The notes: a model not told the origin generated them from the sequence alone. A stretch of 64,000 nucleotides of DNA from an uncultured Candidatus Saccharibacteria bacterium (GCA_964425625.1 CAYRMI010000004.1:5444-69443); one strand, 5' to 3'. Counted from the first letter of the stretch, positions 2,665 to 36,835 are shown. Numbers and translations: made by a program.

Positions 2665-4044
2665 ATGCCAAAACTTACAGTACCCAGAAGGGCTTTGGTC
2701 ATCTTTATGGTTTGTGCGATAATGCAGGGTAATATGGATAATGAACAAATAGAGTCAGTAGAGAATTTAACGGAAGGAGAGCCCAAACGAACAAGTGTGT
2801 TGGGAGTAACTCTGGCTTTATTATTAGCTATTGGAGCTTTTTTTTCTGGTCTACAGGTTAATGCCTTAACCAGCAACCAAGATCATCAGGTAGCCAATAT
2901 TTTTTCTATCTTCGCCAGGGAAGATAATGCGATGACGTTGTCGCCAGCCGATCAGCCGGACCTTAGCGAATTTTGGCATATCTGGCAGCTCCTTGATGAG
3001 CGCTTTATTGCTGCTAGTTCAACTCAAGTAATAACCACTGAAGAAAAAATTTATGGTGCAATTCAGGGACTGGTTGGAGCTTATGGCGATCCTTATACTG
3101 TCTTCTTGCCACCGGCTGAGAGTGAAGCTTTTGCCGAAGATATTTCTGGTAATTTTAGTGGCATTGGAATGGAGGTGGGTAATCGTGATGGGGTAATCAC
3201 CGTAATCGCCCCATTGGTGGATACTCCAGCCGAAAAAGCTGGTTTACTATCTGGTGATTTAATTATCCGCATTGATGATGTGAGTACTGAGGGAATGACT
3301 ATCGATGAAGCGGTTAAGAAAATTAGAGGAGAAAAGGGAACGGTGGTTAATTTATCCATTTTCCGTGAAGGTGAACTAGAGATTAGAGAATTCGCCGTCA
3401 CGCGCGACAACATCACTATCCCGACGGTAAAAACGAAACAAGAAGGAGACGTGTTTATCATTAGTCTTTATAGTTTCAATGCCGTAGCAGAAATAAAGAT
3501 GCAAGAAGCGATGCGTGAGTACGTCAAAAGTGATGCTACCAAGATGATACTAGACTTACGTGGTAACCCCGGAGGCTACCTACAGAGTGCGGTTGCTATT
3601 GCCAGTTTCTTTCTACCCACCGGTAAGGTGGTAGTCAAAGAAAATCATGGTGACGTTATAAACGACAAACTGTATCGTAGCCAGGGTAAGACTTTGGATA
3701 AGAGGGCGCCAGAAAAGATGGTAGTTCTGATAGATGGTGGATCAGCCTCAGCTTCAGAGATTTTGGCTGGAGCACTGAGTGAACATGGCTACGCGACACT
3801 TATCGGTGAGAGTACTTTTGGTAAAGGTTCAGTCCAAGAACTAATCAACAATGACGATGGTTCTGCCTTAAAAGTTACCGTCGCACGTTGGTTGACCCCT
3901 AATGGACTCTCCATTTCTGATGGTGGATTAAAGCCAGATATTAAAATTAAGCGCACCGCCGAAGATAGAATAAGTGAACTCGATCCACAACTGACAGCCG
4001 GACTAGATTTCTTGGCCGGTAAAGAGGTGGTGAGTCAAGAATAA
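2665..4044 (+). CDS. Carboxy-terminal processing peptidase (S41 family, Ctp/Prc-like) with PDZ domain and N-terminal membrane anchor
   Basis: PDZ region GIGMEVGNRDGVITVIAPLVDTPAEKAGLLSGDLIIRIDD. S41 motifs DLRGNPGG and GGSASASEILAGAL. The ORF track starts at TTG 2644; ATG 2665 (MPKLTV) is preferred. Confidence 0.85.
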   Translation: MPKLTVPRRALVIFMVCAIMQGNMDNEQIESVENLTEGEPKRTSVLGVTLALLLAIGAFFSGLQVNALTSNQDHQVANIFSIFAREDNAMTLSPADQPDLSEFWHIWQLLDERFIAASSTQVITTEEKIYGAIQGLVGAYGDPYTVFLPPAESEAFAEDISGNFSGIGMEVGNRDGVITVIAPLVDTPAEKAGLLSGDLIIRIDDVSTEGMTIDEAVKKIRGEKGTVVNLSIFREGELEIREFAVTRDNITIPTVKTKQEGDVFIISLYSFNAVAEIKMQEAMREYVKSDATKMILDLRGNPGGYLQSAVAIASFFLPTGKVVVKENHGDVINDKLYRSQGKTLDKRAPEKMVVLIDGGSASASEILAGALSEHGYATLIGESTFGKGSVQELINNDDGSALKVTVARWLTPNGLSISDGGLKPDIKIKRTAEDRISELDPQLTAGLDFLAGKEVVSQE

Positions 4045-4123
4045 TCCGCGATTGGAAGGGAAGGCAAAATTTTGCTATGATGCTTTGGTTATACAGTTAG
4101 CCGTTATTGTAAGTGCATTAGAT

Positions 4124-4570
4124 ATGAAAGTTATATTACTCCGTGACGTGGCTAAGATTGGTCGCCGGTTTGAGATAAAGGAAGTGCCAGACGGGTTTGC
4201 TTTAAATAAGTTGATTCCGCAAAAGTATGCTGAAGCAGCTACCCCGGCCAATGTAAAACGAATAATGGAGAAAAATAAGAACGATGTTCGTCATACTAGC
4301 CTAAAGAAGGAGACAGCCGAAGCCATTGCGCAGGCCTGCGCCCTTAAGCCACTGATCATCTCGATGGAAGCTAATGACCAGGGGCATTTATTTCAGAGCG
4401 TTCACGCCAGTGATGTTGTGAAGTCAGCTCTGGCAGTTGGGCTTAGTATCGATCCGGTTAGTCTAAAATTTGCCGAACCAATCAAATCTCTTGGAGATCA
4501 TAGTGTCTCACTAGTGGTTGGTGCTGAGAATCACACCCTAGCAATTAGTGTGGTAGCAAAAGATAAGTAA
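4124..4570 (+). CDS. rplI: 50S ribosomal protein L9
   Basis: MKVILLRDVAKIGRRFEIKEVPDGFALNKLIPQ matches the L9 N-terminal consensus MKVILLxDVxxLGKKGDVxxVKDGYARNFLIP. The start is moved to the internal ATG 4124 of ORF 4052..4570. Confidence 0.85.
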   Translation: MKVILLRDVAKIGRRFEIKEVPDGFALNKLIPQKYAEAATPANVKRIMEKNKNDVRHTSLKKETAEAIAQACALKPLIISMEANDQGHLFQSVHASDVVKSALAVGLSIDPVSLKFAEPIKSLGDHSVSLVVGAENHTLAISVVAKDK

Positions 4571-4578
4571 TAATTTAT

Positions 4579-5292
4579 ATGATAAACAAAAGCAATATTA
4601 TAATGGTGGGGGTAGTGGTTGTCTTATCGGGTGCCTTGGTGGCTTTAATGGCTTACTGGCTTGGCCCAGATAATGTTTCTAGCCAAAAGGCAAGTCTCAG
4701 TGATTCCAATAACCAAAACGAAATTACTGCACCATTAAACGCCGAACAATTAGCCGCCTATCAAGTAGATATGACAAATGAAAACAACCCAGTAGCCACT
4801 TTGGTTACTAATCAGGGAACAATCGAACTAGAGCTATTTGCTGATACAATGCCTATCACTGCTGGTAACTTTATCAAACTAGCCAAGGAAGGATTTTATG
4901 ATGGGGTCAAATTTCATCGTGTAATCGATGGGTTTATGATTCAATCCGGTGATCCTATCACCAAGACCGAAGAATACTTGAGGTACGGTACGGGTGGTCC
5001 GGGTTATGCTATTCCTGATGAGCATGTGGCTGGCGAATACCTCACCAACGTACGAGGAACAATTTCCATGGCCAATAGTGGACCAGAGTCTGGTGGGAGT
5101 CAGTTTTTTATAAACTTAGCTGATAATACCAATCTAGATTTTGATAAAGTGCCACTTACCTCTAAGCATCCAGTTTTTGGTCGGGTAGTTAAAGGTATGG
5201 AAGTGGTAGACGCAATCGCAAAAGTAGAGACTAATGACCGCGATATGCCACTTAATGCAGTAGTGATAGAAAAAGTCTCAATTAACGAATAG
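4579..5292 (+). CDS. Cyclophilin-type peptidyl-prolyl cis-trans isomerase with N-terminal transmembrane anchor
   Basis: Cyclophilin core FHRVIDGFMIQSGDP ... GTISMANSGPESGGSQFFINL. The N-terminus is hydrophobic (MVGVVVVLSGALVALMAYWL). Confidence 0.85.
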   Translation: MINKSNIIMVGVVVVLSGALVALMAYWLGPDNVSSQKASLSDSNNQNEITAPLNAEQLAAYQVDMTNENNPVATLVTNQGTIELELFADTMPITAGNFIKLAKEGFYDGVKFHRVIDGFMIQSGDPITKTEEYLRYGTGGPGYAIPDEHVAGEYLTNVRGTISMANSGPESGGSQFFINLADNTNLDFDKVPLTSKHPVFGRVVKGMEVVDAIAKVETNDRDMPLNAVVIEKVSINE

Positions 5293-9508: not shown

Positions 9509-10356
9509 CCTACATCCTCTTTGATATTGGTGGGACAAAGACACGAGTCGCTGTCACTGATGATCTACAAACTTTACGATCTAGTGTCGATTTTAAAACC
9601 AAATCAAATTTTAAGGAAGAAGTAGATCTAATCTGCAAATCAATCGACGGTCTGGTTAAAAAGCAAGACATCAAAGCCATGGCTGGAGGAGTTCGGGGAC
9701 TATTAAACGAAGAAAAGACTGGCATTCATAACGATACTGTCCTAAAAGGTTGGGCTGGTAAATCTCTGGTCGGTGCTTTGTCTGATCGCTACCAGGTTCC
9801 TGTCTATCTAGAAAACGACACCGCTTTAGCTGGTCTCGGGGAAGCAGTGTATGGCGCTGGGCAGGGACTGGATATTATTGCTTATCATTCGATTAGTACT
9901 GGAGTAGGAGGTGTCAAGATAGAAAAGGGAAAGCTCGATGAAGCCACTAGCGGTTTTGAGCCAGGACATCAGGTGCTTGATATTGACCGCACAATTTTGG
10001 GCGAAGATATATCGCCGACTTTAGAAAACTTGGTATCGGGCGCCGGTGTAGAAGCACGAGTGGGTAGTAAGCCATTTGAAATTCCCCAAGAGGATACGAT
10101 TTGGGATGAGTTGGCCGAATATCTGGCTCAGGGTTTGCGAAATACGATTTTGTATTGGTCGCCAGAGGTGATTGTACTTGGAGGGTCAATGATGGTGGGC
10201 GAGCCGAAGATTCCGGTGGAGGCCGTGCGCAAGTACACGGTGGAAGTGCTAGATGGTTTTGTGGATTGTCCGTTCATCACTCTTTCTGCACTTAAGGATG
10301 AAGCCGGCCTCTATGGGGCGATGGCCTATCTCAAAGAAAAAATGGTAAAGTCATAG
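9505..10356 (+). CDS. ROK family sugar kinase (putative glucokinase)
   Basis: MTYILFDIGGTKTRVAV (ATP-binding N-terminus) and ENDTALAGLGE (ROK motif). Translationally coupled to pgi. Confidence 0.75.
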   Translation: MTYILFDIGGTKTRVAVTDDLQTLRSSVDFKTKSNFKEEVDLICKSIDGLVKKQDIKAMAGGVRGLLNEEKTGIHNDTVLKGWAGKSLVGALSDRYQVPVYLENDTALAGLGEAVYGAGQGLDIIAYHSISTGVGGVKIEKGKLDEATSGFEPGHQVLDIDRTILGEDISPTLENLVSGAGVEARVGSKPFEIPQEDTIWDELAEYLAQGLRNTILYWSPEVIVLGGSMMVGEPKIPVEAVRKYTVEVLDGFVDCPFITLSALKDEAGLYGAMAYLKEKMVKS

Positions 10357-10406
10357 CTATTTACATTTAAGCTAATCAATGTTTTAATCTAGCCAGTCCG
10401 CACTAT

Positions 10407-10435
10407 GTTATGTGCGCGTTTTTCGATAGAAAGGA
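10407..10435 (+). terminator. Putative intrinsic terminator after the ROK kinase gene
   Basis: CGCAC-TATGTTAT-GTGCG hairpin followed by CGTTTTT. Confidence 0.4.
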
Positions 10436-10441
10436 AATATC

Positions 10442-10900
10442 ATGAGAAAAAGCTCAGAGAAATTTGTGATGTTCAAATTGGGCGCGAATACCGTCGCCTT
10501 ACGGGCGGAAGATGTAAGGTATCGGATAGATTGGCAGCTACCCATTACCACAATCGAGAATACTCCCCCCTACGTCCTTGGACGGACGATACTTTGTGCT
10601 GAGAAGGAAGTTGTCGTGCAAGATTTAGAGCGTCGCTTCTTTCCCTGTGCTTGCCTACCTACTCGGACGCTTACGCTTCTGGTTTGCTTGCCAGATCAAA
10701 GTCTGGCCGGCTTTATGGTCGATTATGACTGGGTGAGTGTAATCGAAATAGAGAAGCCTATGCGATATGGACCACTACCAGGCAACAATCCGCTCGATTC
10801 CTTTGTTGAAAGCATGGTTGTCTGGCGCGATAAGTTGCTGGGGGACAGCAACAAGTGTCTTTGGCTCTTAGATCCGCAAAAGCTAGCCCATATCAACTGA
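10442..10900 (+). CDS. CheW-like domain protein
   Basis: KFVMFKLGANTVALRAEDVRYRIDWQLPITTIENTPPYVLGRTILCAEKEVVVQDLERRF aligns with E. coli CheW [71 protein letters not shown] lies upstream. Confidence 0.45.
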   Translation: MRKSSEKFVMFKLGANTVALRAEDVRYRIDWQLPITTIENTPPYVLGRTILCAEKEVVVQDLERRFFPCACLPTRTLTLLVCLPDQSLAGFMVDYDWVSVIEIEKPMRYGPLPGNNPLDSFVESMVVWRDKLLGDSNKCLWLLDPQKLAHIN

Positions 10901-26035: not shown

Positions 26036-27118
26036 TTAGATTTTCATCTCCTCAAGTCCTTTGTGGCAATTAGCTAAGTCTGAAGCAAGTGGGTTTTCTG
26101 CCCAAGCGCCAAGAATCGTTTGAATCACCAGCTGCGCATGTTCTATAAGCTGTTCCTTGGGAGCGTTGAAGCGTTCAAACGTGACACTACCATCACGCTT
26201 GTAGTCGCTAATAAGTTCGCTGATGTTACTTATCACATCACCCGACTTCAGCATCAATGATTCAGGCGAGAACTGACGTATTTCCTCTAGCGCCGCCTCC
26301 TTGCGTTCAAGCCATGATAACCCTCTATCTTTCTCAGTGACGCTATCTACCAGCCCTGCCACTATGTCGCCAAAACGCTCCGAGAGCATTTTTTTAGTTA
26401 CTTTGTGGTCAACTACACTATCTTCAATAGTGTCATGAAGAATCCCAGCCACTACAAGATCTTCACTTGCCCCTGCTTGTGAGAGAATGAGTCCGACAGT
26501 AAGCGGATGGGTGACATACGGAACCGCCTTCCCTTTCCTAAACTGAGGCTCACCAGTAAGTTGATGCACTTCAATTGAGAAATGAATCGCGTCTTGAATT
26601 TTGTTTGTGTAGATCATATTAATTTCATTATTGGCAATAATTTGTTCTCGTTTAGAATTCACTTCATCAGCCAGTTGGTTACACAATTTCGAGATTTGTT
26701 CTGCTGTTCCATTTTTCAGTACATCACTTACATCCCAAACACCCAGGAACTCTTTATTAGATTCTACTCTATCTCCGCTATTCCACCACACCTTTGGTGA
26801 TTCCTGTCCGGCAGGCCAATCGTACTGCAATCTTGGATATCCTGAATAAGTAACACTCTTTGATCCTTTCTTCGGTGACACTGGGGTATAAACTCGGTAA
26901 ATTAGATCATTACCACCTTCCCAATCAGTTGATTCATGCATTGAGTAGTGATAAAGCTGACTACATTCCTTGCACTGTAGTAGCATTTCCCTGTCATGAT
27001 CTTCATCAATATAGGTATCGATAATATCGAACATTTGCATACCGACTTGCTTCATATACTCCGGGTCGTTCCAAAGACGACATTGTGTGGGAGCTGTCTG
27101 TTTAGTTTGTTTTTCCAT
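26036..27118 (-). CDS. Fusion protein: unknown Cys-containing N-terminal domain plus C-terminal RelA/SpoT-type HD domain (small-alarmone-hydrolase/Mesh1-like)
   Basis: C-terminal half has YVTHPLTVGLILSQAGASEDLVVAGILHDTIEDS, matching the (p)ppGpp-hydrolase HD motif HPLxVAxILxxLxxDxxTxxAALLHDxxEDT. The first roughly 190 aa (CRLW ... CKECSQLYHY ...) has no recognisable family. Confidence 0.6.
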   Translation of the reverse strand: MEKQTKQTAPTQCRLWNDPEYMKQVGMQMFDIIDTYIDEDHDREMLLQCKECSQLYHYSMHESTDWEGGNDLIYRVYTPVSPKKGSKSVTYSGYPRLQYDWPAGQESPKVWWNSGDRVESNKEFLGVWDVSDVLKNGTAEQISKLCNQLADEVNSKREQIIANNEINMIYTNKIQDAIHFSIEVHQLTGEPQFRKGKAVPYVTHPLTVGLILSQAGASEDLVVAGILHDTIEDSVVDHKVTKKMLSERFGDIVAGLVDSVTEKDRGLSWLERKEAALEEIRQFSPESLMLKSGDVISNISELISDYKRDGSVTFERFNAPKEQLIEHAQLVIQTILGAWAENPLASDLANCHKGLEEMKI

Positions 27119-27335: not shown

Positions 27336-27800
27336 TTAATACCGATACGAAAGGCCGACCGCATCACTCCAGTAAGCAATGTTGCGTGGTTCAACTGGAT
27401 CGCCTGCTTCCCTCACCCGTTCCATCATTAAGTTATAAAATTCTTCCGCTACCTCTAGCGAATGTAGAAGTCTAGTACTTTTCAGTATTCGAGTAATCCG
27501 GAGGTGATTGTGGTCCATAACCGTCAGCCAGTGATAGTTCTCCAGGTAAAACCTAATCATCCGCTTTAAGGCTAGAGTTTGGTTAGCTAGAGCGATAGGA
27601 TCAGCTTTGATTAATTCTACCTCAGCCATATTCAAGACCGGTGCATCATGGACATTTTGACTTTCTTCAAGGAGCGGAAAGAGCCATTGGATGTAGTCAT
27701 GTTCGACTTCCAGCCACTCGTCATTTTGTTGCAATACTTCAGCAAAAGTTCTGCCGTTGTTATCGACTCCAGTTCCATTCAAGAAATCTGCTACTGACAT
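27336..27800 (-). CDS. OGFr_N-like domain protein (opioid growth factor receptor conserved region homologue)
   Basis: HDYIQWLFPLLEESQNVHDAPVLNMAEVELIKADP and DHNHLRITRILKSTRLLHSLE match OGFr_N blocks (HQYIQWLFPLREPGVNWHAKPLTLREVE ... HNNLRITRILKSLGELGLE). Confidence 0.6.
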   Translation of the reverse strand: MSVADFLNGTGVDNNGRTFAEVLQQNDEWLEVEHDYIQWLFPLLEESQNVHDAPVLNMAEVELIKADPIALANQTLALKRMIRFYLENYHWLTVMDHNHLRITRILKSTRLLHSLEVAEEFYNLMMERVREAGDPVEPRNIAYWSDAVGLSYRY

Positions 27801-28325: not shown

Positions 28326-29054
28326 CTACTTTTTAACATCAACGTACAAAATTGGATTTTGACTCCCTTGGCTCATGAAATGCGTAACTGATTTATATCG
28401 GTAACGGTCGCATATCTCTTTGGGCGCTACTTTACCGTTAAACTCCCAGCGTCCAGGAGCTTCCTTAGATTGGTACCATTCCGACACTAGGTATACCTCG
28501 CGAATAATTCCCAAATACACGGCACAAGCATACTGGTACTTATGAACTTTCGCACTCACCTTCCAATGCTTTCTGGTAACTTCGTAAAGTGCTGGGCCAC
28601 TCATGCCATATTTATAGGCTTTGTTTATCCGGATTAGTACCAGTGGGTCTGCAATGACCGCTGGTTTAGCCTCATACTGAATTTCAATGTCTTCAATTTT
28701 TCTGATACCGGCTTCAGAGGTATAGTGACCTGACATGATATTTGTCAGAGCTATTTTTTGCACTGATTCGATGTAGTCAATCAATGATGCTTCAACAGCA
28801 AAGGCCTGATCTTCAGTAAGACCGTGCCTAATAATCATGTGTTGGACTTCTCTTCCTGCTGCCCGAATGGCTTTAATGGTGGCAATTTTCTCCACTTCTT
28901 TTATGTCCACTATTTCTGACGCTTCAACATGAGCGTAAATTCTATTTCCCTTTCCTTTTCCAACGTAAAATACCTTCTTGGTTCGTGGGTCAATTAAGGC
29001 ATATACGTAGAATTTTATTTTCTCGATGGTTGATTGTGATAGACGGGTTTTCAT
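28326..29054 (-). CDS. GIY-YIG nuclease domain protein with uncharacterised C-terminal domain
   Basis: N-terminus FYVYALIDPRTKKVFYVGKGKGNRIYAHV is a canonical GIY-YIG motif (YxYxL ... YVGKG ... R ... H). The roughly 150-aa C-terminal domain has no recognised motif. Confidence 0.65.
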   Translation of the reverse strand: MKTRLSQSTIEKIKFYVYALIDPRTKKVFYVGKGKGNRIYAHVEASEIVDIKEVEKIATIKAIRAAGREVQHMIIRHGLTEDQAFAVEASLIDYIESVQKIALTNIMSGHYTSEAGIRKIEDIEIQYEAKPAVIADPLVLIRINKAYKYGMSGPALYEVTRKHWKVSAKVHKYQYACAVYLGIIREVYLVSEWYQSKEAPGRWEFNGKVAPKEICDRYRYKSVTHFMSQGSQNPILYVDVKK

Positions 29055-30680: not shown

Positions 30681-31355
30681 CTACAATGACTTAGTATACT
30701 CACACTCTGGGTAGGCAGAACAACCTAAGAATTTGCCATGTCTACCACTCCTTTCTATCAGAGGGCTACTACACTTTGGGCATAATTTTACGGAAATATC
30801 AGAAACTTCAGGTTCAACATCTTGTACCATCTTTATATATTTAAGAAGACCGAAACTATCGACAAGTTCAATTGGTTTATCTTCAGCGAACTTTTTCGCC
30901 TCTAGGGTGAATTTATTGGTAGTAATGAAGTATGCCTGCCCATTAAGTAGCCTATCGGCCAAAGCGCCGTAAAAATCTCTAACCTCGCTTACACCTACAG
31001 TAGAAGTAATGTATTTTTTACACTGGATATAACCTCTAACACCATCCTTTTCAATTTCTACATCTACTCCACCATCGTGTGACCTACCTACCGCTTCGGA
31101 TTTATAACCAAGCTTTTTAAATAACTCAGCTATATATGCTTCAAACTCGTAGGGCTTCATCTCTCTTAGCCATTGGATTAACTCTCTATCTGAGCGCCAA
31201 GTAGCTCCTTTATCAAATTTTTTGGCTAGAGACCAACCATTAAATCTTGAGATTAAAAAAGCTTTTAAAATTAAAAATAACGCAAAGGCAAAAATAAAGG
31301 CAAATAACGGCCAAAGTGTTGTCCAATATAAGTTTATAATAGCTTCAGCACTCAT
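30681..31355 (-). CDS. Membrane-anchored Mrr-cat restriction endonuclease-like protein with C-terminal topoisomerase-type C4 zinc ribbon
   Basis: N-terminal TM LWPLFAFIFAFALFLIL. Mrr-type core PYEFEAYIAELFKKLGYKSEAVGRSHDGGVDVEIEKDGVRGYIQCKKY ... VGVSEVRDFYGA. C-terminal CPKCSSPLIERSGRHGKFLGCSAYPECEY is a zf-C4_Topoisom motif. Confidence 0.7.
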   Translation of the reverse strand: MSAEAIINLYWTTLWPLFAFIFAFALFLILKAFLISRFNGWSLAKKFDKGATWRSDRELIQWLREMKPYEFEAYIAELFKKLGYKSEAVGRSHDGGVDVEIEKDGVRGYIQCKKYITSTVGVSEVRDFYGALADRLLNGQAYFITTNKFTLEAKKFAEDKPIELVDSFGLLKYIKMVQDVEPEVSDISVKLCPKCSSPLIERSGRHGKFLGCSAYPECEYTKSL

Positions 31356-31418: not shown

Positions 31419-31889
31419 TTATAGATTTATTTGATACTGTACTCTCTTATTTATAACCTTGTCTTCTAATTCAACTGCCGTTACTAGAGAGTAACCTAAA
31501 GATTCGGGATGAAGACTGACGAAACAAAATTTATACTGCTCTCCAAGCTGTTCCGTAAGATCAAATTCATTTTGGGTTGCTCCGAAGAAAAATCCTTTAG
31601 GATTGTTTGGTAGGTACTTTTGAGTTGTCTTAAGTTCAATCAGAGTAACCTTTTTAACATCTTTAAATGTAATTTCTTGTTCATCACTGGTGTGTCCGGG
31701 TAATATAAATAAATCAAAGGTACGTGAATATTTCTTGTCTAAATCGAGAATATCTAGAAGTTGTTTCCTGCCCTCTTTTGTTGGAAGCAAAAAACGTTTA
31801 TCGATTGATAATAAATAATCAATCGCTTGCTTCTCAGTCTTGTTATTGGAAAGGGTTATTTTGTAAGAATGAATCGACGCCATTCCCAC
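31419..31889 (-). CDS. Small hypothetical protein, possible PD-(D/E)XK-fold nuclease
   Basis: FDLFILPGH ... KVTLIELKTT gives a D ... E-x-K arrangement. No other recognisable features. Confidence 0.3.
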   Translation of the reverse strand: MGMASIHSYKITLSNNKTEKQAIDYLLSIDKRFLLPTKEGRKQLLDILDLDKKYSRTFDLFILPGHTSDEQEITFKDVKKVTLIELKTTQKYLPNNPKGFFFGATQNEFDLTEQLGEQYKFCFVSLHPESLGYSLVTAVELEDKVINKRVQYQINL

Positions 31890-31927: not shown

Positions 31928-34231
31928 TCACACATCAATCTTACAAACAAACAGTCCCAGAATCTTGAACTCGTCGTCTGCGGTCAATATTCTAATTTTA
32001 TGCTCCGGATTGGTCGACTTTGGAATAAGAATTAAGCCGTCTTTTTCTACTTTTATCTGCTTAAGGGTTGCGTCATCCCCTATTAGCACCACCGCGTTTC
32101 CACTAGTTGCGTTTAAGTTCTTCTGACACAAAATTATATCCCCATCATTTATACCAAGTTGATTCATTGAATCCCCTCGAGTATGGAGTGCAAAGTACTT
32201 AGCACCAGGCTTTATTAGCCACCTCGGTACTTTGATAGTTTCGTCACTAGTCGAGTCCGCGAGCATTAATTCACCACAACCAACAGAGTCGTACAGTGGT
32301 AGCTCAACCATATCCTCTTGATATGGTGAAATGATTTCATCAGGTTCACTGGTACTTTTGTTCGTCTTGAATGAGTCGTTACCCAGCATTCCTCTAAAAT
32401 AATTTTCAGTCTCCTTATCACAGAAATATACATAACAGCCTTTCTGACCTCTGGTCATGAGAGTCCGGTATGTATTCTTGATGATTAAATCTAACTGCTT
32501 TCGTACAGCTTCTTCATTTCCTTCTTTTGCCATCTTCTTCCAACCATGGATGGATTTATCTGTACTCGCTCTAGCTTCCGGCACTGATATAATCTTACCT
32601 TCTCGAACAACTAGATCAGGACCGATAATTACACCAACGTAATCTACTTCTAGCCCTTGGCTAGTATGGATGCAACCGACTTCAGACACTGACTCTGGTT
32701 GAACAATCCAAGCTTGGCCATCCTCATCTAGATTCCAAGTGGCTCGATAGTTATCAATAACAATATCTTTAAGAATTGGTTTCTTTTTACTTATCCATTT
32801 CCAACAATAGCCTGCCAACATGCGAGCTTTATTCTTCTCTTTATTTTTCTCCTTTATTGTGTCGTGCAATCTCTGTGGGTTATCAAAAATTTGAAAATCA
32901 TAATTAATTCCCTCCAGGGTATCGTTAGCTGTGTCGCGTATTTGTAGTACTTCATCCAACCACGCCAAGTAACCATTTGATCCATTGCAGCGAAATTGTG
33001 ATTCGAGTTGCATGAGCGTTATTTCTGTGCCTTGCGCTTTTGCGTGAGCGGTAATTTCCTCCACGCTACCAATATCTTTGAGTGTTACTTTTTGGTCTTC
33101 ATCGACAAAGAAAATACTAAACTTTGAAGCATTGATTATTTCTTTCACTTGATTCTCGCCAAGATGACTGAACATACCTGACTTAGCATTGAGCCTATGT
33201 GCTTCATCAACAATTAGCGCATCGTACATATCCTCTTCAGCATTATGAAAAGAGCCTGAGCCACTAAACATGTTTGAAATGTGGGATTTTTTGAAGGTTC
33301 CAGTTAGCTTGATTTCATATACTTCACGAGGAGCTGAATTTCGAGTAACATATTGCGCAACAAGCGACTCCTTGGTTAGATTAACTAATAGATTAATAGC
33401 TAAGACTGATTTACCAGTACCTGGACCGCCTTGTACAATAAGCACGTTTTTGTTTGTAATTGATGACTTGCGAGCAAGTTGTAGCGCGGTTTCGTAGACC
33501 ACCTTTTGATCATCAATCATAACAAACTCTTCATTACCTTTGAGCATGGAAGAGAGTTGGTCTGCAAGACCTTTAGAAGGTCTTATCTTTCCGTGATCAA
33601 TGCGATACATGATTTGGTTTTTGTCACCATGTCTAACATGTTGCTTAATAAAATCACGTAACTTAATTGCGTCAGGTTTAAGAAAGATTGGAGCCTTTTC
33701 AATATATTCACTATAAAAATCGTGACTGATCACTGAATCAGGTTCGTAATTGTGTAAATAGGCACATGGATAAAGCTGGATACACTCCTCTTCTACCGTC
33801 GCATTAAAATCTTCTAAAAGTCTTTTATATGACCAAGCTTGATACGAAGGATGAGACGTCTCTTGTTCACCGTGCTTGAAACGAGTAACCACTACAGCGT
33901 CTTTGTCCGTAAGTTCGGCTTGTGTCCATTGTTTTAATTCAATCAAAATAGCAGTATCTTGATTCTGATTATCGCGTCCAGTAATAATAAAATCAACGCG
34001 CTTAGAAGATTGTGGTATATGATACTCAATAGCTACACCAGCATCAGCTGGTATCTCTGTATCTGAAAGCACTCGATCCATGTATTGTAGCGAGTTAGTC
34101 CATGACATGACCTCAGAGTGCCCGGTACTTCGACCAGTGACTTCTTTGTATGTCTCAAGAATAATATTTCCTATGTCATTGGACATGACGTCGTTCTGAA
34201 ATTGTTCTTTCGAGGCCGAGTAGACAATCAT
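31928..34231 (-). CDS. Multidomain protein: N-terminal PD-(D/E)XK nuclease, DUF2075-type SF1 ATPase/helicase (Nhi/Schlafen-like), C-terminal LexA/UmuD-type S24 autopeptidase domain
   Basis: Nuclease region: VDFIITGRDNQNQDTAILIELKQW. ATPase: VLIVQGGPGTGKSVLAINLL (Walker A) and ALIVDEAHRL (Walker B). DUF2075-like core follows. S24 region: LPLYDSVGCGELMLADS aligns with the LexA cleavage region LPLVGRVAAGEPLLAQQ and the UmuD Cys-Gly site. GDSM (Ser nucleophile) and GINDGDIIL ... ATLKQIKV (catalytic Lys) are also present. Confidence 0.7.
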   Translation of the reverse strand: MIVYSASKEQFQNDVMSNDIGNIILETYKEVTGRSTGHSEVMSWTNSLQYMDRVLSDTEIPADAGVAIEYHIPQSSKRVDFIITGRDNQNQDTAILIELKQWTQAELTDKDAVVVTRFKHGEQETSHPSYQAWSYKRLLEDFNATVEEECIQLYPCAYLHNYEPDSVISHDFYSEYIEKAPIFLKPDAIKLRDFIKQHVRHGDKNQIMYRIDHGKIRPSKGLADQLSSMLKGNEEFVMIDDQKVVYETALQLARKSSITNKNVLIVQGGPGTGKSVLAINLLVNLTKESLVAQYVTRNSAPREVYEIKLTGTFKKSHISNMFSGSGSFHNAEEDMYDALIVDEAHRLNAKSGMFSHLGENQVKEIINASKFSIFFVDEDQKVTLKDIGSVEEITAHAKAQGTEITLMQLESQFRCNGSNGYLAWLDEVLQIRDTANDTLEGINYDFQIFDNPQRLHDTIKEKNKEKNKARMLAGYCWKWISKKKPILKDIVIDNYRATWNLDEDGQAWIVQPESVSEVGCIHTSQGLEVDYVGVIIGPDLVVREGKIISVPEARASTDKSIHGWKKMAKEGNEEAVRKQLDLIIKNTYRTLMTRGQKGCYVYFCDKETENYFRGMLGNDSFKTNKSTSEPDEIISPYQEDMVELPLYDSVGCGELMLADSTSDETIKVPRWLIKPGAKYFALHTRGDSMNQLGINDGDIILCQKNLNATSGNAVVLIGDDATLKQIKVEKDGLILIPKSTNPEHKIRILTADDEFKILGLFVCKIDV

Positions 34232-34233
34232 AA

Positions 34234-34578
34234 CTACAGCTCGTTATATTTTGTAGCTACGCCTTTTGCCTTTTCGACTGGGTACTTCTGTTCATTCTTA
34301 TCCATCTTCCGACCAAGAGCATCTATTAAGTCAATGTCGTAGTGGTTTGCTAGCATTATGATCCAGTACAAAACGTCTGCCAGCTCATCGCGAACGTTAT
34401 CCTCTTTACCTTTTGCTACCTGATTATCTTTTGTCCATTGAAATAGCTCAAGCACTTCTGATGCTTCTAGTTGGAGTGAAAGTGCTAGATTTTTTGGGTC
34501 ATGGAATTGCGCCCAGTCTCGTTCAAGATTAAACTTCTTAATACGTGCAGTTACTCTATTTAAGTCAGTTTGATTCAT
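34234..34578 (-). CDS. MazG-like nucleoside triphosphate pyrophosphohydrolase (all-alpha NTP-PPase)
   Basis: ERDWAQFHDPKNLALSLQLEASEVLELFQW ... NVRDELADVLYWIIMLANHYDIDL carries the EExxE/ExxD metal-binding helices of the MazG/YpjD family. Stop overlaps the start of 31928..34231 (ATGA), consistent with translational coupling. Confidence 0.65.
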   Translation of the reverse strand: MNQTDLNRVTARIKKFNLERDWAQFHDPKNLALSLQLEASEVLELFQWTKDNQVAKGKEDNVRDELADVLYWIIMLANHYDIDLIDALGRKMDKNEQKYPVEKAKGVATKYNEL

Positions 34579-34619
34579 GGTTTATACTAAAATGTAACAT
34601 TTTAAAGCTTAATCCTCAA

Positions 34620-34766
34620 TTGATCATAAGGAATTCCCTAATCAGATACAGCGTAGCGAGGTTTTTCAGGATAAGGAGCGGGATGCCGAGCTGGAAGTAC
34701 CAGCGCTTTGTTTTGTGCCAGAAGATAAGCATGTGACATAGACGCCGACACTGCCGGAGATGGTAG
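34620..34766 (-). pseudogene. Degraded duplicate of the 3' end of the DUF1294 gene. First copy of a roughly 145-bp direct repeat; second copy at 35369-35505.
   Basis: About 85% nucleotide identity to 35369-35505. A 1-nt deletion (ATGTCACATGC versus ACGCCGGGATGC) breaks the DUF1294 reading frame. Confidence 0.55.
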
Positions 34767-35662: not shown

Positions 35663-36565
35663 TTATTCATTACCAAGCTTTTGTAATGACTGTAGTCTAC
35701 TGTACCAGTCAACTGGAAATCCCATATTAGATACATCAATACTGTGTTCGACTATAAGTTGATTTAACTTTTCCAGCCATGAAGAAGTTGGATTGACTTC
35801 ATTTAAGATTATTTGAAGCACAATCAGATGGTTATAAAGATGATTATTTTTTGTAAAAAACTTAATAAATTTCCGGTGATCCATGCGCGGAGTAAATACT
35901 AGTTCGCGATTCCATAGTCGGCTATGATGGGCACAATTATTTCGTAACACAGATAGAGCATGCATCCAACTCATAACGAATTGCTCGTCAGAGGAAAAGG
36001 TTCGCGCTATAAGGTTTTTGTACTCGCGCTTCAATGATTTCGAAAACTTTACCGTCTGCCCGAATGATAGTATCTCAACCATAGCCCAGATGGGTGGCAA
36101 TGTAGGGTCACTGTATTTTTGCGCATAATGCAGGATACTAATTTCTCTACTATGATTAACTTCATCCATAAACATCTGCTGTATTTCACTATAAAGAAAT
36201 TTATCCTTGAATAACTCTATTGCTTGGTGGGGATGAGATTTATTAGTCTCAACTGAAAGCATATACGTGACCCTTGCCTTGAAAGATTTTTCCACTCTCT
36301 CTAATAAATCTAGCAGCAGAAAGCGGAGCTTATTATCAAAAGTATAAATCTTAATAACATCAGAAAAAGTTGTCCCCGCTCGGAATACGTCGTCTACCTG
36401 AAAAAATTTAAAGTAGATTGAAAGATGATAGTAATTTACATTTTTTAGCCAATATCGCAATTCAGCTTCGTCATCAATTACCAATCCTCGCTCACGAAGA
36501 CGATTCACTTGCTCGTCAATTGATAGTGGAGGTTTAGTATATGTTAACGGTATGTTCTCACTCAT
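35663..36565 (-). CDS. Abi_2 family abortive-infection protein (AbiD/AbiF-like)
   Basis: LSIDEQVNRLRERGLVIDDEAELRYWLKNVNYYHLSIY, FDNKLRFLLLDLLERVEKSFKARVTYML and WMHALSVLRNNCAHHSRLWNR are characteristic Abi_2 blocks. Start taken at MSENIPLTYTKPP (M8 of track ORF 35663..36586). Confidence 0.8.
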   Translation of the reverse strand: MSENIPLTYTKPPLSIDEQVNRLRERGLVIDDEAELRYWLKNVNYYHLSIYFKFFQVDDVFRAGTTFSDVIKIYTFDNKLRFLLLDLLERVEKSFKARVTYMLSVETNKSHPHQAIELFKDKFLYSEIQQMFMDEVNHSREISILHYAQKYSDPTLPPIWAMVEILSFGQTVKFSKSLKREYKNLIARTFSSDEQFVMSWMHALSVLRNNCAHHSRLWNRELVFTPRMDHRKFIKFFTKNNHLYNHLIVLQIILNEVNPTSSWLEKLNQLIVEHSIDVSNMGFPVDWYSRLQSLQKLGNE

Positions 36566-36835
36566 AAACTTATGATATTTTACCATCTTTATTCTGTTGA
36601 CTACATAGGTTGCAATTTACAATTTTGGTAGTAAAGTGTATATATCAACACCCGCCGCGCCTCTGCTTGCAAGCGAACCCGGCGGGTTTGTGTATCTACT
36701 ACTTTGCATGACAATATTAAAGTCAAATATATATTGTTTGATTAAGAAAAAAGGGTTATCGAATGTCTAATCGATAACCTCTTTTTTGATTTTATATTTC
36801 CTAAATTTAGTGAATTATTATTAGGTAAAATTTAT

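Follow-up and report, generated by a model that had tools for sequence, protein, structure and literature searches.

A Nhi-like nuclease-helicase with a predicted LexA-type autopeptidase tail, encoded in a mobile cassette with a MazG-like gene

We analysed a 64-kb stretch of DNA (64,000 nucleotides; the window) from an uncultured Candidatus Saccharibacteria bacterium (GCA_964425625.1, CAYRMI010000004.1:5444-69443) and found in it a two-gene cassette, in which a MazG-like gene stands directly upstream of a gene for a 767-amino-acid (aa) fusion of a predicted nuclease, a helicase and a LexA-type S24 domain (Table 1). These are the three parts named in the original prediction for this locus, and all are present. 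The tail has the cleavage site and catalytic residues of LexA and UmuD. We tentatively propose, at somewhat short of an even chance, that this is a Nhi-like mobile cassette directed against phages or mobile elements, that the tail is a removable sensor of RecA filaments formed on single-stranded DNA (ssDNA), and that the MazG-like enzyme acts alongside.

The tail matches the Pfam Peptidase_S24 profile at residues 645-761, covering profile positions 1-115 of 116 (E 5.9e-20). NCBIfam returned LexA (1.7e-14) and UmuD (7.9e-13), both short of the equivalog cut-offs, which is normal for a domain that stands alone, and LexA chains in the PDB matched the tail by sequence at up to 8e-10. Identity is 35% to the C-terminal domain of Escherichia coli LexA and 43% to a bona fide LexA encoded at one of the homologous loci (L066). 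Structure prediction, which had been suggested as a check on the C-terminal region, gave a template-modelling (TM) score of 0.87 to the LexA C-terminal domain (1jhe) and to RecA-bound LexA (8gms). In the alignment, Cys652-Gly653 occupies the columns of LexA Ala84-Gly85 and UmuD Cys24-Gly25, Ser688 that of LexA Ser119 and Lys724 that of LexA Lys156. The S24 fold, the Ser/Lys dyad and the Ala/Cys-Gly scissile bond shared by LexA, UmuD and lambda cI are thus all found, whereas the N-terminal partner is neither a helix-turn-helix (HTH) domain nor a short UmuD arm but 610 residues of nuclease and helicase. Those residues gave no HTH family match in Pfam or NCBIfam, and no HTH domain lies between the helicase and S24. 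From these alignments the tail is confirmed as a complete predicted LexA-type autopeptidase with dyad and cleavage site intact, as had been claimed.

The best 120 matches to the protein include 40 fused homologues, and in all 40 tails the columns of the Gly at P1', the Ser, the Met and the Lys are invariant. Cys occupies P1 in 22 tails, as it does in UmuD, and Ala in the other 18, as in LexA, with the alignment at the cleavage site uncertain for P0109 and P0111. Fused homologues are 61-91% identical to the 767-aa protein, which is itself identical in two sources, an NCBI contig of 69,913 bp and Logan.

The middle of the protein is a DUF2075 helicase by its PF09848 match, with Walker A and Walker B motifs that are intact here and invariant in the family, and its structural neighbours are the SF1B-type proteins SLFN11, RecD/RecD2, Dna2 and Dda; the SF1 ATPase of the original prediction therefore stands. 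The nuclease assignment came from modelling. Residues 1-250 lack any Pfam match, and fold searches with the whole protein returned mainly matches to the helicase and LexA domains and were uninformative on the nuclease. Modelled alone with AlphaFold2, residues 1-250 gave a mean predicted local distance difference test (pLDDT) score of 88 and a predicted TM (pTM) score of 0.86. Glu69, Asp80, Glu98 and Lys100 are invariant in a diverse alignment that reaches down to 31% identity, and by prediction Asp80 opens strand 79-86 and the ExK closes strand 92-100, as in the PD-(D/E)XK motif. Because the invariant residues sit at the motif positions, the reading of 'DFIITG...ELKQW' as a nuclease gains support from the fold model and from these residues, although no sequence family matches it. 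On this model the protein would contain both elements of the Nhi and Nhi-like layout, an N-terminal PD-(D/E)XK domain with D...(D/E)xK and a DUF2075 SF1B helicase with Walker A/B.

The 114-aa product of the upstream gene is, by sequence, a DCTPP1-type all-alpha nucleoside triphosphate (NTP) pyrophosphohydrolase, in line with its earlier description as MazG-like. It matches PF12643 (E 9e-19) and PF03819 (E 1.7e-8) in Pfam, and residues 14-114 align nearly full-length with mouse and human DCTPP1 (RS21-C6, also XTP3TPA; 6e-21) and with the archaeal protein 4qgp (3e-21). The metal-ligand motifs E38xxE41xxE44 and E65xxD68 are present, and four motifs are common with DCTPP1 and 4qgp: RDWxQFHxPxNL, ExxExxELFQW, ExxDVL and KMxKNxxKYP. 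Unlike DCTPP1, the window protein is the bacterial operon partner of a defence-type helicase.

Both open reading frames (ORFs) lie where they had been placed, at 767 and 114 aa and co-directional on the minus strand, but the ATGA overlap reported between them is not there: the junction reads GAG CTG TAG tt ATG ATT, a spacer of 2 nucleotides (nt). Coupling nevertheless holds as a property of the family. We analysed 88 non-redundant loci, 82 of them with enough upstream sequence, and in 68 of the 82 (83%) the core is immediately preceded by a co-directional MazG-like gene, with MazG downstream of the core in four further loci. Fifteen of the 68 upstream pairs do overlap in the ATGA manner (a gap of -4 nt), and another 19 are 2-3 nt apart; because no gap among the 68 exceeds 44 nt, tight spacing can be taken as characteristic of the pair. 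Four loci (L001, L003, L004 and L006) have the identical 2-nt spacing while all their other neighbours differ. We conclude that these data support an operon-like pair. At L018, a 491-aa ORF on the opposite strand (3236-4708) lies between MazG and the helicase gene and may be an insertion-sequence transposase that split the operon.

The MazG and nuclease-helicase pair is a widespread mobile cassette of Bacteria and Archaea. A word-indexed homologue search yielded at least 8000 scored candidates, and an exhaustive search of 50%-identity representatives found 7761 proteins at E <= 1e-3 and 821 at E <= 1e-30. Close relatives occur in metagenome-assembled genomes (MAGs) of Candidatus Saccharibacteria/Saccharimonadales (75% and 69% identity) and of Bacteroidales (57%). 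Plasmid copies at 50-57% identity are found in Halomonas, Hymenobacter and Marivirga and in the archaea Methanosphaera and Halalkalicoccus, where RefSeq annotates them as 'DUF2075 domain-containing protein' beside 'nucleotide pyrophosphohydrolase'. A scan of viral contigs with the family alignment found no relatives, and a GenBank set of phages gave one good match, in the record of Microcystis phage Mwe-JY31 (60% identity); we therefore conclude that the cassette is not typically phage-borne. On a Rhodoferax sp. chromosome (CP152376.1; L097 5647-6783), MazG is followed by an internally deleted 260-aa remnant of a DUF2075 fragment and S24. This decaying copy fits an accessory gene under fluctuating selection.

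The S24 tail is an optional, recurrent and modular add-on, carried by a minority of family members. It is present in 12 of the 84 full-length representatives of 50%-identity clusters. This is a better estimate of its frequency than the 32 of 83 in the locus sample, because that sample is skewed to relatives of the tailed query and so overstates the family-wide frequency. In a neighbour-joining tree of 200 cores with 51 tailed tips, tail state changed at least 19 times, a rough lower bound from a tree without support values. Among the 10 longest representatives, Pfam found S24 in nine and a PIF1 helicase instead in one. The tail-less P0023 and P0024 (83-84% identity) are closer to the 767-aa protein than the tailed P0012-P0022 (66-76%), and tail-less proteins are conserved as well as tailed ones, with every catalytic motif kept. 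MazG accompanies tail-less and tailed forms alike; thus MazG and the tail are independent add-ons. Tail-less homologues are ~617-625 aa long and, as judged by setting P0023, P0024 and P0028 against the 767-aa protein at the C-terminus, end ~8-10 residues past ETENYF (residues 606-611), within the first third of the linker. Because they stop there, a cleavage product would comprise such a core and ~32-35 further residues, so that the predicted product 1-652 would closely match the natural tail-less enzymes in extent.

Tails fall into two types. Type A, found in the window and in proteins of ~767 aa, is LexA-like and carries VGC/GE (the slash marks the predicted scissile bond), and type B, in proteins of ~800 aa, carries AAA/G and an insertion before the catalytic Lys, with ~21-28% identity to E. 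coli LexA/UmuD over BLAST segments. A type-B tail with Ala/Gly, Ser and Lys intact is also found on a GIY-YIG-DUF2075 paralogue encoded directly downstream of a tailed family member (L026 7410-9632), which places the same tail on a different nuclease scaffold. Since the dyad and the scissile Gly are strictly kept despite independent S24 captures, the sequences argue that catalysis is under selection and that the tail is more than a dimerisation surface.

Several other S24 proteins were met in this comparison. The LexA at L066 (HTH and S24; 10009-10686) lies 3 kb downstream of a tailed cassette. In a Saccharimonadales MAG, a tail-less cassette has a 270-aa S24 protein nearby (L010 11003-11812), whose Pfam match is to S24 alone and leaves the N-terminal 130 residues unassigned, so S24 repressor-type proteins do exist in Saccharimonadales. 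At two loci (L047 3574-7437 and L059 7507-11370) a 1288-aa methyltransferase-PLD nuclease-SF2 helicase-S24-like-DUF3427 protein adjoins the cassette; its S24-like domain has Cys-Gly and Ser, and a hidden Markov model alignment puts Arg in the catalytic Lys column. With the type-A tail as the sole query, a homologue search gave 10 proteins: one true LexA (38%) and otherwise mostly short entries that resemble pieces of the same fusion. We considered an S24 partner acting in trans and dropped it: matches to a type-B tail profile were mostly short, and the three that we examined, P0295, P0291 and P0369, are frameshifted or internally deleted fused genes. No second S24 protein was found in the window, and RecA was found in none of the homologous loci retrieved.

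How might such an enzyme work? The nuclease-helicase would act on partly single-stranded DNA, for example replication or recombination intermediates, by unwinding and degrading it. By analogy with LexA, UmuD and cI biology, the tail would bind RecA-ssDNA filaments and so bring the enzyme to ssDNA-rich DNA. Filament binding would trigger self-cleavage by Ser688/Lys724 at Cys652-Gly653, shedding a 115-residue tail and leaving a 652-residue enzyme equivalent to the natural tail-less members. It is from this binding and shedding that we would regard the tail as a removable regulatory module, both RecA-sensing and dimerising. The direction we favour is activation, or licensing, in which the tail would hold or tether the enzyme until RecA filaments release it onto ssDNA-rich DNA; this would match the attack on phage replication intermediates proposed for Nhi. 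MazG would hydrolyse dCTP, or modified dCTP/dNTPs, and thereby limit phage DNA synthesis. Its role, the weakest part of the mechanism, might be to lower the dCTP pool, to break down phage-specific modified dCTP or to control the helicase. Defence is most probably the function of the cassette; this we infer from sequence, as we do the dependence on RecA, the direction of the switch and the substrate of MazG.

The core is not new in layout, and on sequence grounds the S24 tail is the interesting part. Anti-phage activity has been published for Nhi (SERP2475) of Staphylococcus epidermidis and for a 'Nhi-like' protein (Millman et al. 2022); for Nhi, a nuclease-helicase that forms dimers, phage replication intermediates are the proposed target. 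Like these proteins and lactococcal AbiO, the window protein is a single polypeptide with a PD-(D/E)XK-type nuclease ahead of a DUF2075 SF1B helicase, encoded in a defence island or on a mobile element. However, the PADLOC models for Nhi and AbiO match the helicase part only, and the nuclease domain of the window protein cannot be aligned with theirs. Nhi is, moreover, a single gene with a poorly conserved, glyoxalase-like C-terminus, whereas the window cassette has a DCTPP1-like gene coupled upstream and a LexA-type autopeptidase at its C-terminus. PDC-S41, itself a candidate system in PADLOC, is also a DUF2075 nuclease-helicase (~657 aa) and gave the best PADLOC match to the N-terminal 296 residues; by sequence, the window protein is assigned to a sister family of PDC-S41, outside PDC-S41 itself. 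Human SLFN11 shares the PF09848 helicase-domain family and is a structural match, but is eukaryotic, with a Schlafen RNase N-terminus and no S24 domain. SLFN11 is recruited to RPA-coated ssDNA at stressed replication forks, a conceptual parallel to a tail that binds RecA filaments. Damage or ssDNA is linked to immune control elsewhere, as in the control of CBASS by CapH/CapP. Restriction alleviation of EcoKI likewise ties a DNA damage or ssDNA signal to immune control (PMC11109961). These systems operate through ClpXP degradation or repressor cleavage, whereas the sensor-protease in the window would be built into the effector. In a search of open-access full-text literature we met with no paper that has DUF2075 and MazG together, and with no description of an S24 domain carried by a defence helicase. 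Thus, the view that the architecture is undescribed holds, within that literature, for the S24/MazG combination, and does not hold for the nuclease-DUF2075 core.

Several observations count against the RecA-sensing defence cassette that we propose. The PADLOC matches to Nhi (2.8e-12) and AbiO (7.2e-14) are confined to residues 248-466, or about profile positions 180-377 of 470, so the architecture is alike and the sequence family different. The match to PDC-S41 (1.5e-17) covers residues 3-296 and is not full-length; a true member, at L032, matches at 1.4e-279 over 6-660. About 17% of loci have no upstream MazG and most members have no tail, so the core does not depend on either partner. A search of the window for RecA and LexA found neither. 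Identity of 50-57% between bacterial and archaeal plasmid copies is unusually high for a defence or accessory gene. The full-length model has a pTM of 0.48, with unreliable inter-domain geometry, and no autoinhibitory contact can be claimed from it. Finally, nothing in the sequence separates activating from inactivating cleavage, and the family is known from sequences and models alone, with all function inferred.

The switch could also run the other way. The tail might dimerise or stabilise an active enzyme, and RecA-triggered cleavage would then inactivate it, make it monomeric or expose a degron, sparing host repair intermediates. We think this reading as a whole unlikely, though well within consideration, and off-switch polarity in itself nearly as plausible as licensing. 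Cleavage inactivates LexA itself and is followed by degradation of the fragments; Nhi is active as a dimer, and S24 domains dimerise too. Cleaved type-B tails would leave C-terminal ...AAA or ...AA, resembling the ...VAA end of LexA that is recognised by ClpXP. There is also the precedent of EcoKI alleviation, in which HsdR is reported to be removed by ClpXP after DNA damage or recombination (PMC11109961). However, the type-A product in the window would end in ...SVGC, which is not ssrA-like, and abundant tail-less members keep every catalytic motif. Because the core appears functional without the tail in those members, shedding it is unlikely alone to destroy activity. A weaker role for the tail, as a domain for dimerisation or targeting to RecA filaments whose self-cleavage has no regulatory role, seems very improbable to us: LexA-type C-terminal domains do form dimers and dock into the groove of the RecA filament (the fold matches include 8gms and 8trg), and the S24-like domain of the 1288-aa protein has Arg in the Lys column, but Ser, Lys and the P1' Gly are invariant in 40 of 40 tails across two strongly diverged types.

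An improbable alternative to licensed immunity would take the cassette out of defence altogether, as an SOS-linked module for DNA repair and nucleotide sanitation, with a Dna2/RecD-like enzyme activated by RecA filaments in the manner of UmuD and MazG clearing damaged dNTPs. S24 domains otherwise belong to the SOS regulon, DCTPP1-type proteins are house-cleaning enzymes, the helicase fold resembles Dna2, RecD2 and AdnAB, and sequence conservation is high across phyla and domains of life. Set against this are a patchy distribution, the plasmid copies and the decayed Rhodoferax remnant, neighbourhoods that are never conserved and often hold defence genes rather than repair genes, and the anti-phage activity of those proteins of the same architecture that have been tested by experiment. 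The fusion itself might be spurious, a DUF2075 gene and a LexA gene downstream of it having been run together by a frameshift or an assembly error, and frameshift-fragmented database entries do occur (L063, L095 and L096). We put the chance of this at next to nothing. Full-length fused proteins of 751-814 aa were recovered independently at least 40 times, from different samples, and they have a common, conserved linker with no HTH between helicase and S24, and the recovery of an identical protein from NCBI and Logan agrees with this, so that an artefact is effectively refuted.

For Nhi, Hachiman, Hna, Shedu and similar systems, a central question is how the nuclease recognises an infection against the background of ordinary DNA metabolism. 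If the proposal of a built-in LexA-type autopeptidase is true, the universal RecA-ssDNA signal would be wired directly to an immune enzyme with no transcriptional step, and the S24 family would extend beyond repressors and UmuD. A broader idea, which we consider doubtful but worth stating, is that LexA-type S24 tails serve generally as RecA-filament sensors, a module that bacteria have added time and again to nuclease-helicase immune effectors of different kinds; the scaffolds would be PD-(D/E)XK-DUF2075 with its two independent tail types, GIY-YIG-DUF2075 and perhaps the giant methyltransferase-PLD-SF2-DUF3427 protein. If so, SOS-gated immunity could be intrinsic to the effector and post-translational, with RecA-coated ssDNA both recruiting and switching the enzyme. 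The comparison also points to a DCTPP1-like pyrophosphatase as a regular partner of a very widespread and unstudied DUF2075 family.

Table 1. Features of the cassette and its surroundings, in window coordinates; residue numbers refer to the 767-aa protein.
Feature	Position	Strand	Basis or remark
767-aa nuclease-helicase-S24 fusion gene	31928..34231	-	ORF, stop codon included
Predicted PD-(D/E)XK nuclease domain, residues 1-250	33482..34231	-	fold model and invariant residues
Nuclease catalytic candidates	E69 34025-34027; D80 33992-33994; E98-L-K100 33932-33940	-	
DUF2075 / Schlafen group-3 SF1B helicase, residues 261-605	32417..33451	-	PF09848 E 6.4e-105
Walker A GGPGTGKS, residues 268-275	33407-33430	-	
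VDEAHR stretch with Walker B DEAH (residues 342-345)	33194-33211	-	
Disordered linker, residues 611-644 (34 residues)	32300..32401	-	pLDDT <50 at residues 619-639
LexA-type S24 autopeptidase domain, residues 645-767	31931..32299	-	PF00717 E 5.9e-20
Predicted scissile bond Cys652-Gly653	32273-32278	-	LexA/UmuD alignment
Predicted nucleophile Ser688	32168-32170	-	GDSM motif
Predicted general base Lys724	32060-32062	-	ATLKQ motif
DCTPP1-like MazG gene, 114 aa	34234..34578	-	ORF
Promoter-like stretch 5' of MazG	34579..34625	-	TTGAGG 34614-34619, then TGTTACATT
Perfect palindrome TAAAATGT-T-ACATTTTA	34588-34604	-	overlaps -10-like site
HD-domain protein	26036-27118	-	
OGFr_N-like protein	27336-27800	-	
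PD-T4-3 GIY-YIG protein	28326-29054	-	PADLOC 6e-48
DUF2779 protein, 506 aa	29086-30606	-	
Mrr_cat and topoisomerase Zn-ribbon protein	30681-31355	-	
154-aa ORF	31419-31883	-	44 nt downstream of fusion gene; weak NOV_C match, E 0.004
AbiD	35663-36586	-	4e-76
MetK	36836 onward		island edge, return to housekeeping genes

Upstream of MazG, a stretch of ~45 nt reading ATTGAG[GA]AAAA...TGnTACnnTTTAA also precedes MazG in L001, L003 and L004 despite different flanks, and the palindrome listed in Table 1 could be an operator. We looked for an SOS box in this region across the family and found none family-wide; the palindrome is specific to the window and the promoter-like motif is confined to those three close relatives. 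A generic scan for promoters and terminators did no better than on shuffled sequence.

The cassette lies in a low-GC stretch of the window, and the genes around it support a defence-island setting. A survey of gene neighbourhoods, proposed in the original prediction, bore out an accessory context: homologues often lie beside defence genes, occur on plasmids and change neighbours. Among 127 ORFs within 2 kb of the cassette at 38 other loci we found no conserved neighbour, and the defence families that recur in this set are SoFic, type IV restriction enzymes, AIPR, GmrSD, HNH, AbiU, PbeA, MzaE and PDC-S41. The PDC-S41 gene at L032 (1780-3762; 1.4e-279) is immediately beside the cassette, and a gene at L066 (7397-9376), with a product 47% identical to that of L032, probably accounts for the other PDC-S41 member among these neighbours; DUF2075 paralogues in tandem are a recurrent arrangement. 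Finally, the 154-aa ORF downstream of the fusion gene in the window has a PD-(D/E)XK-like 'DLFILPG...LIELK' pattern. A 71%-identical copy follows the tail-less homologue in L006/L007 and it is absent from all other loci. We rejected it as a third component of the cassette, since it recurs in these closest relatives only; probably it is an independent gene for a small nuclease, moving together with them.

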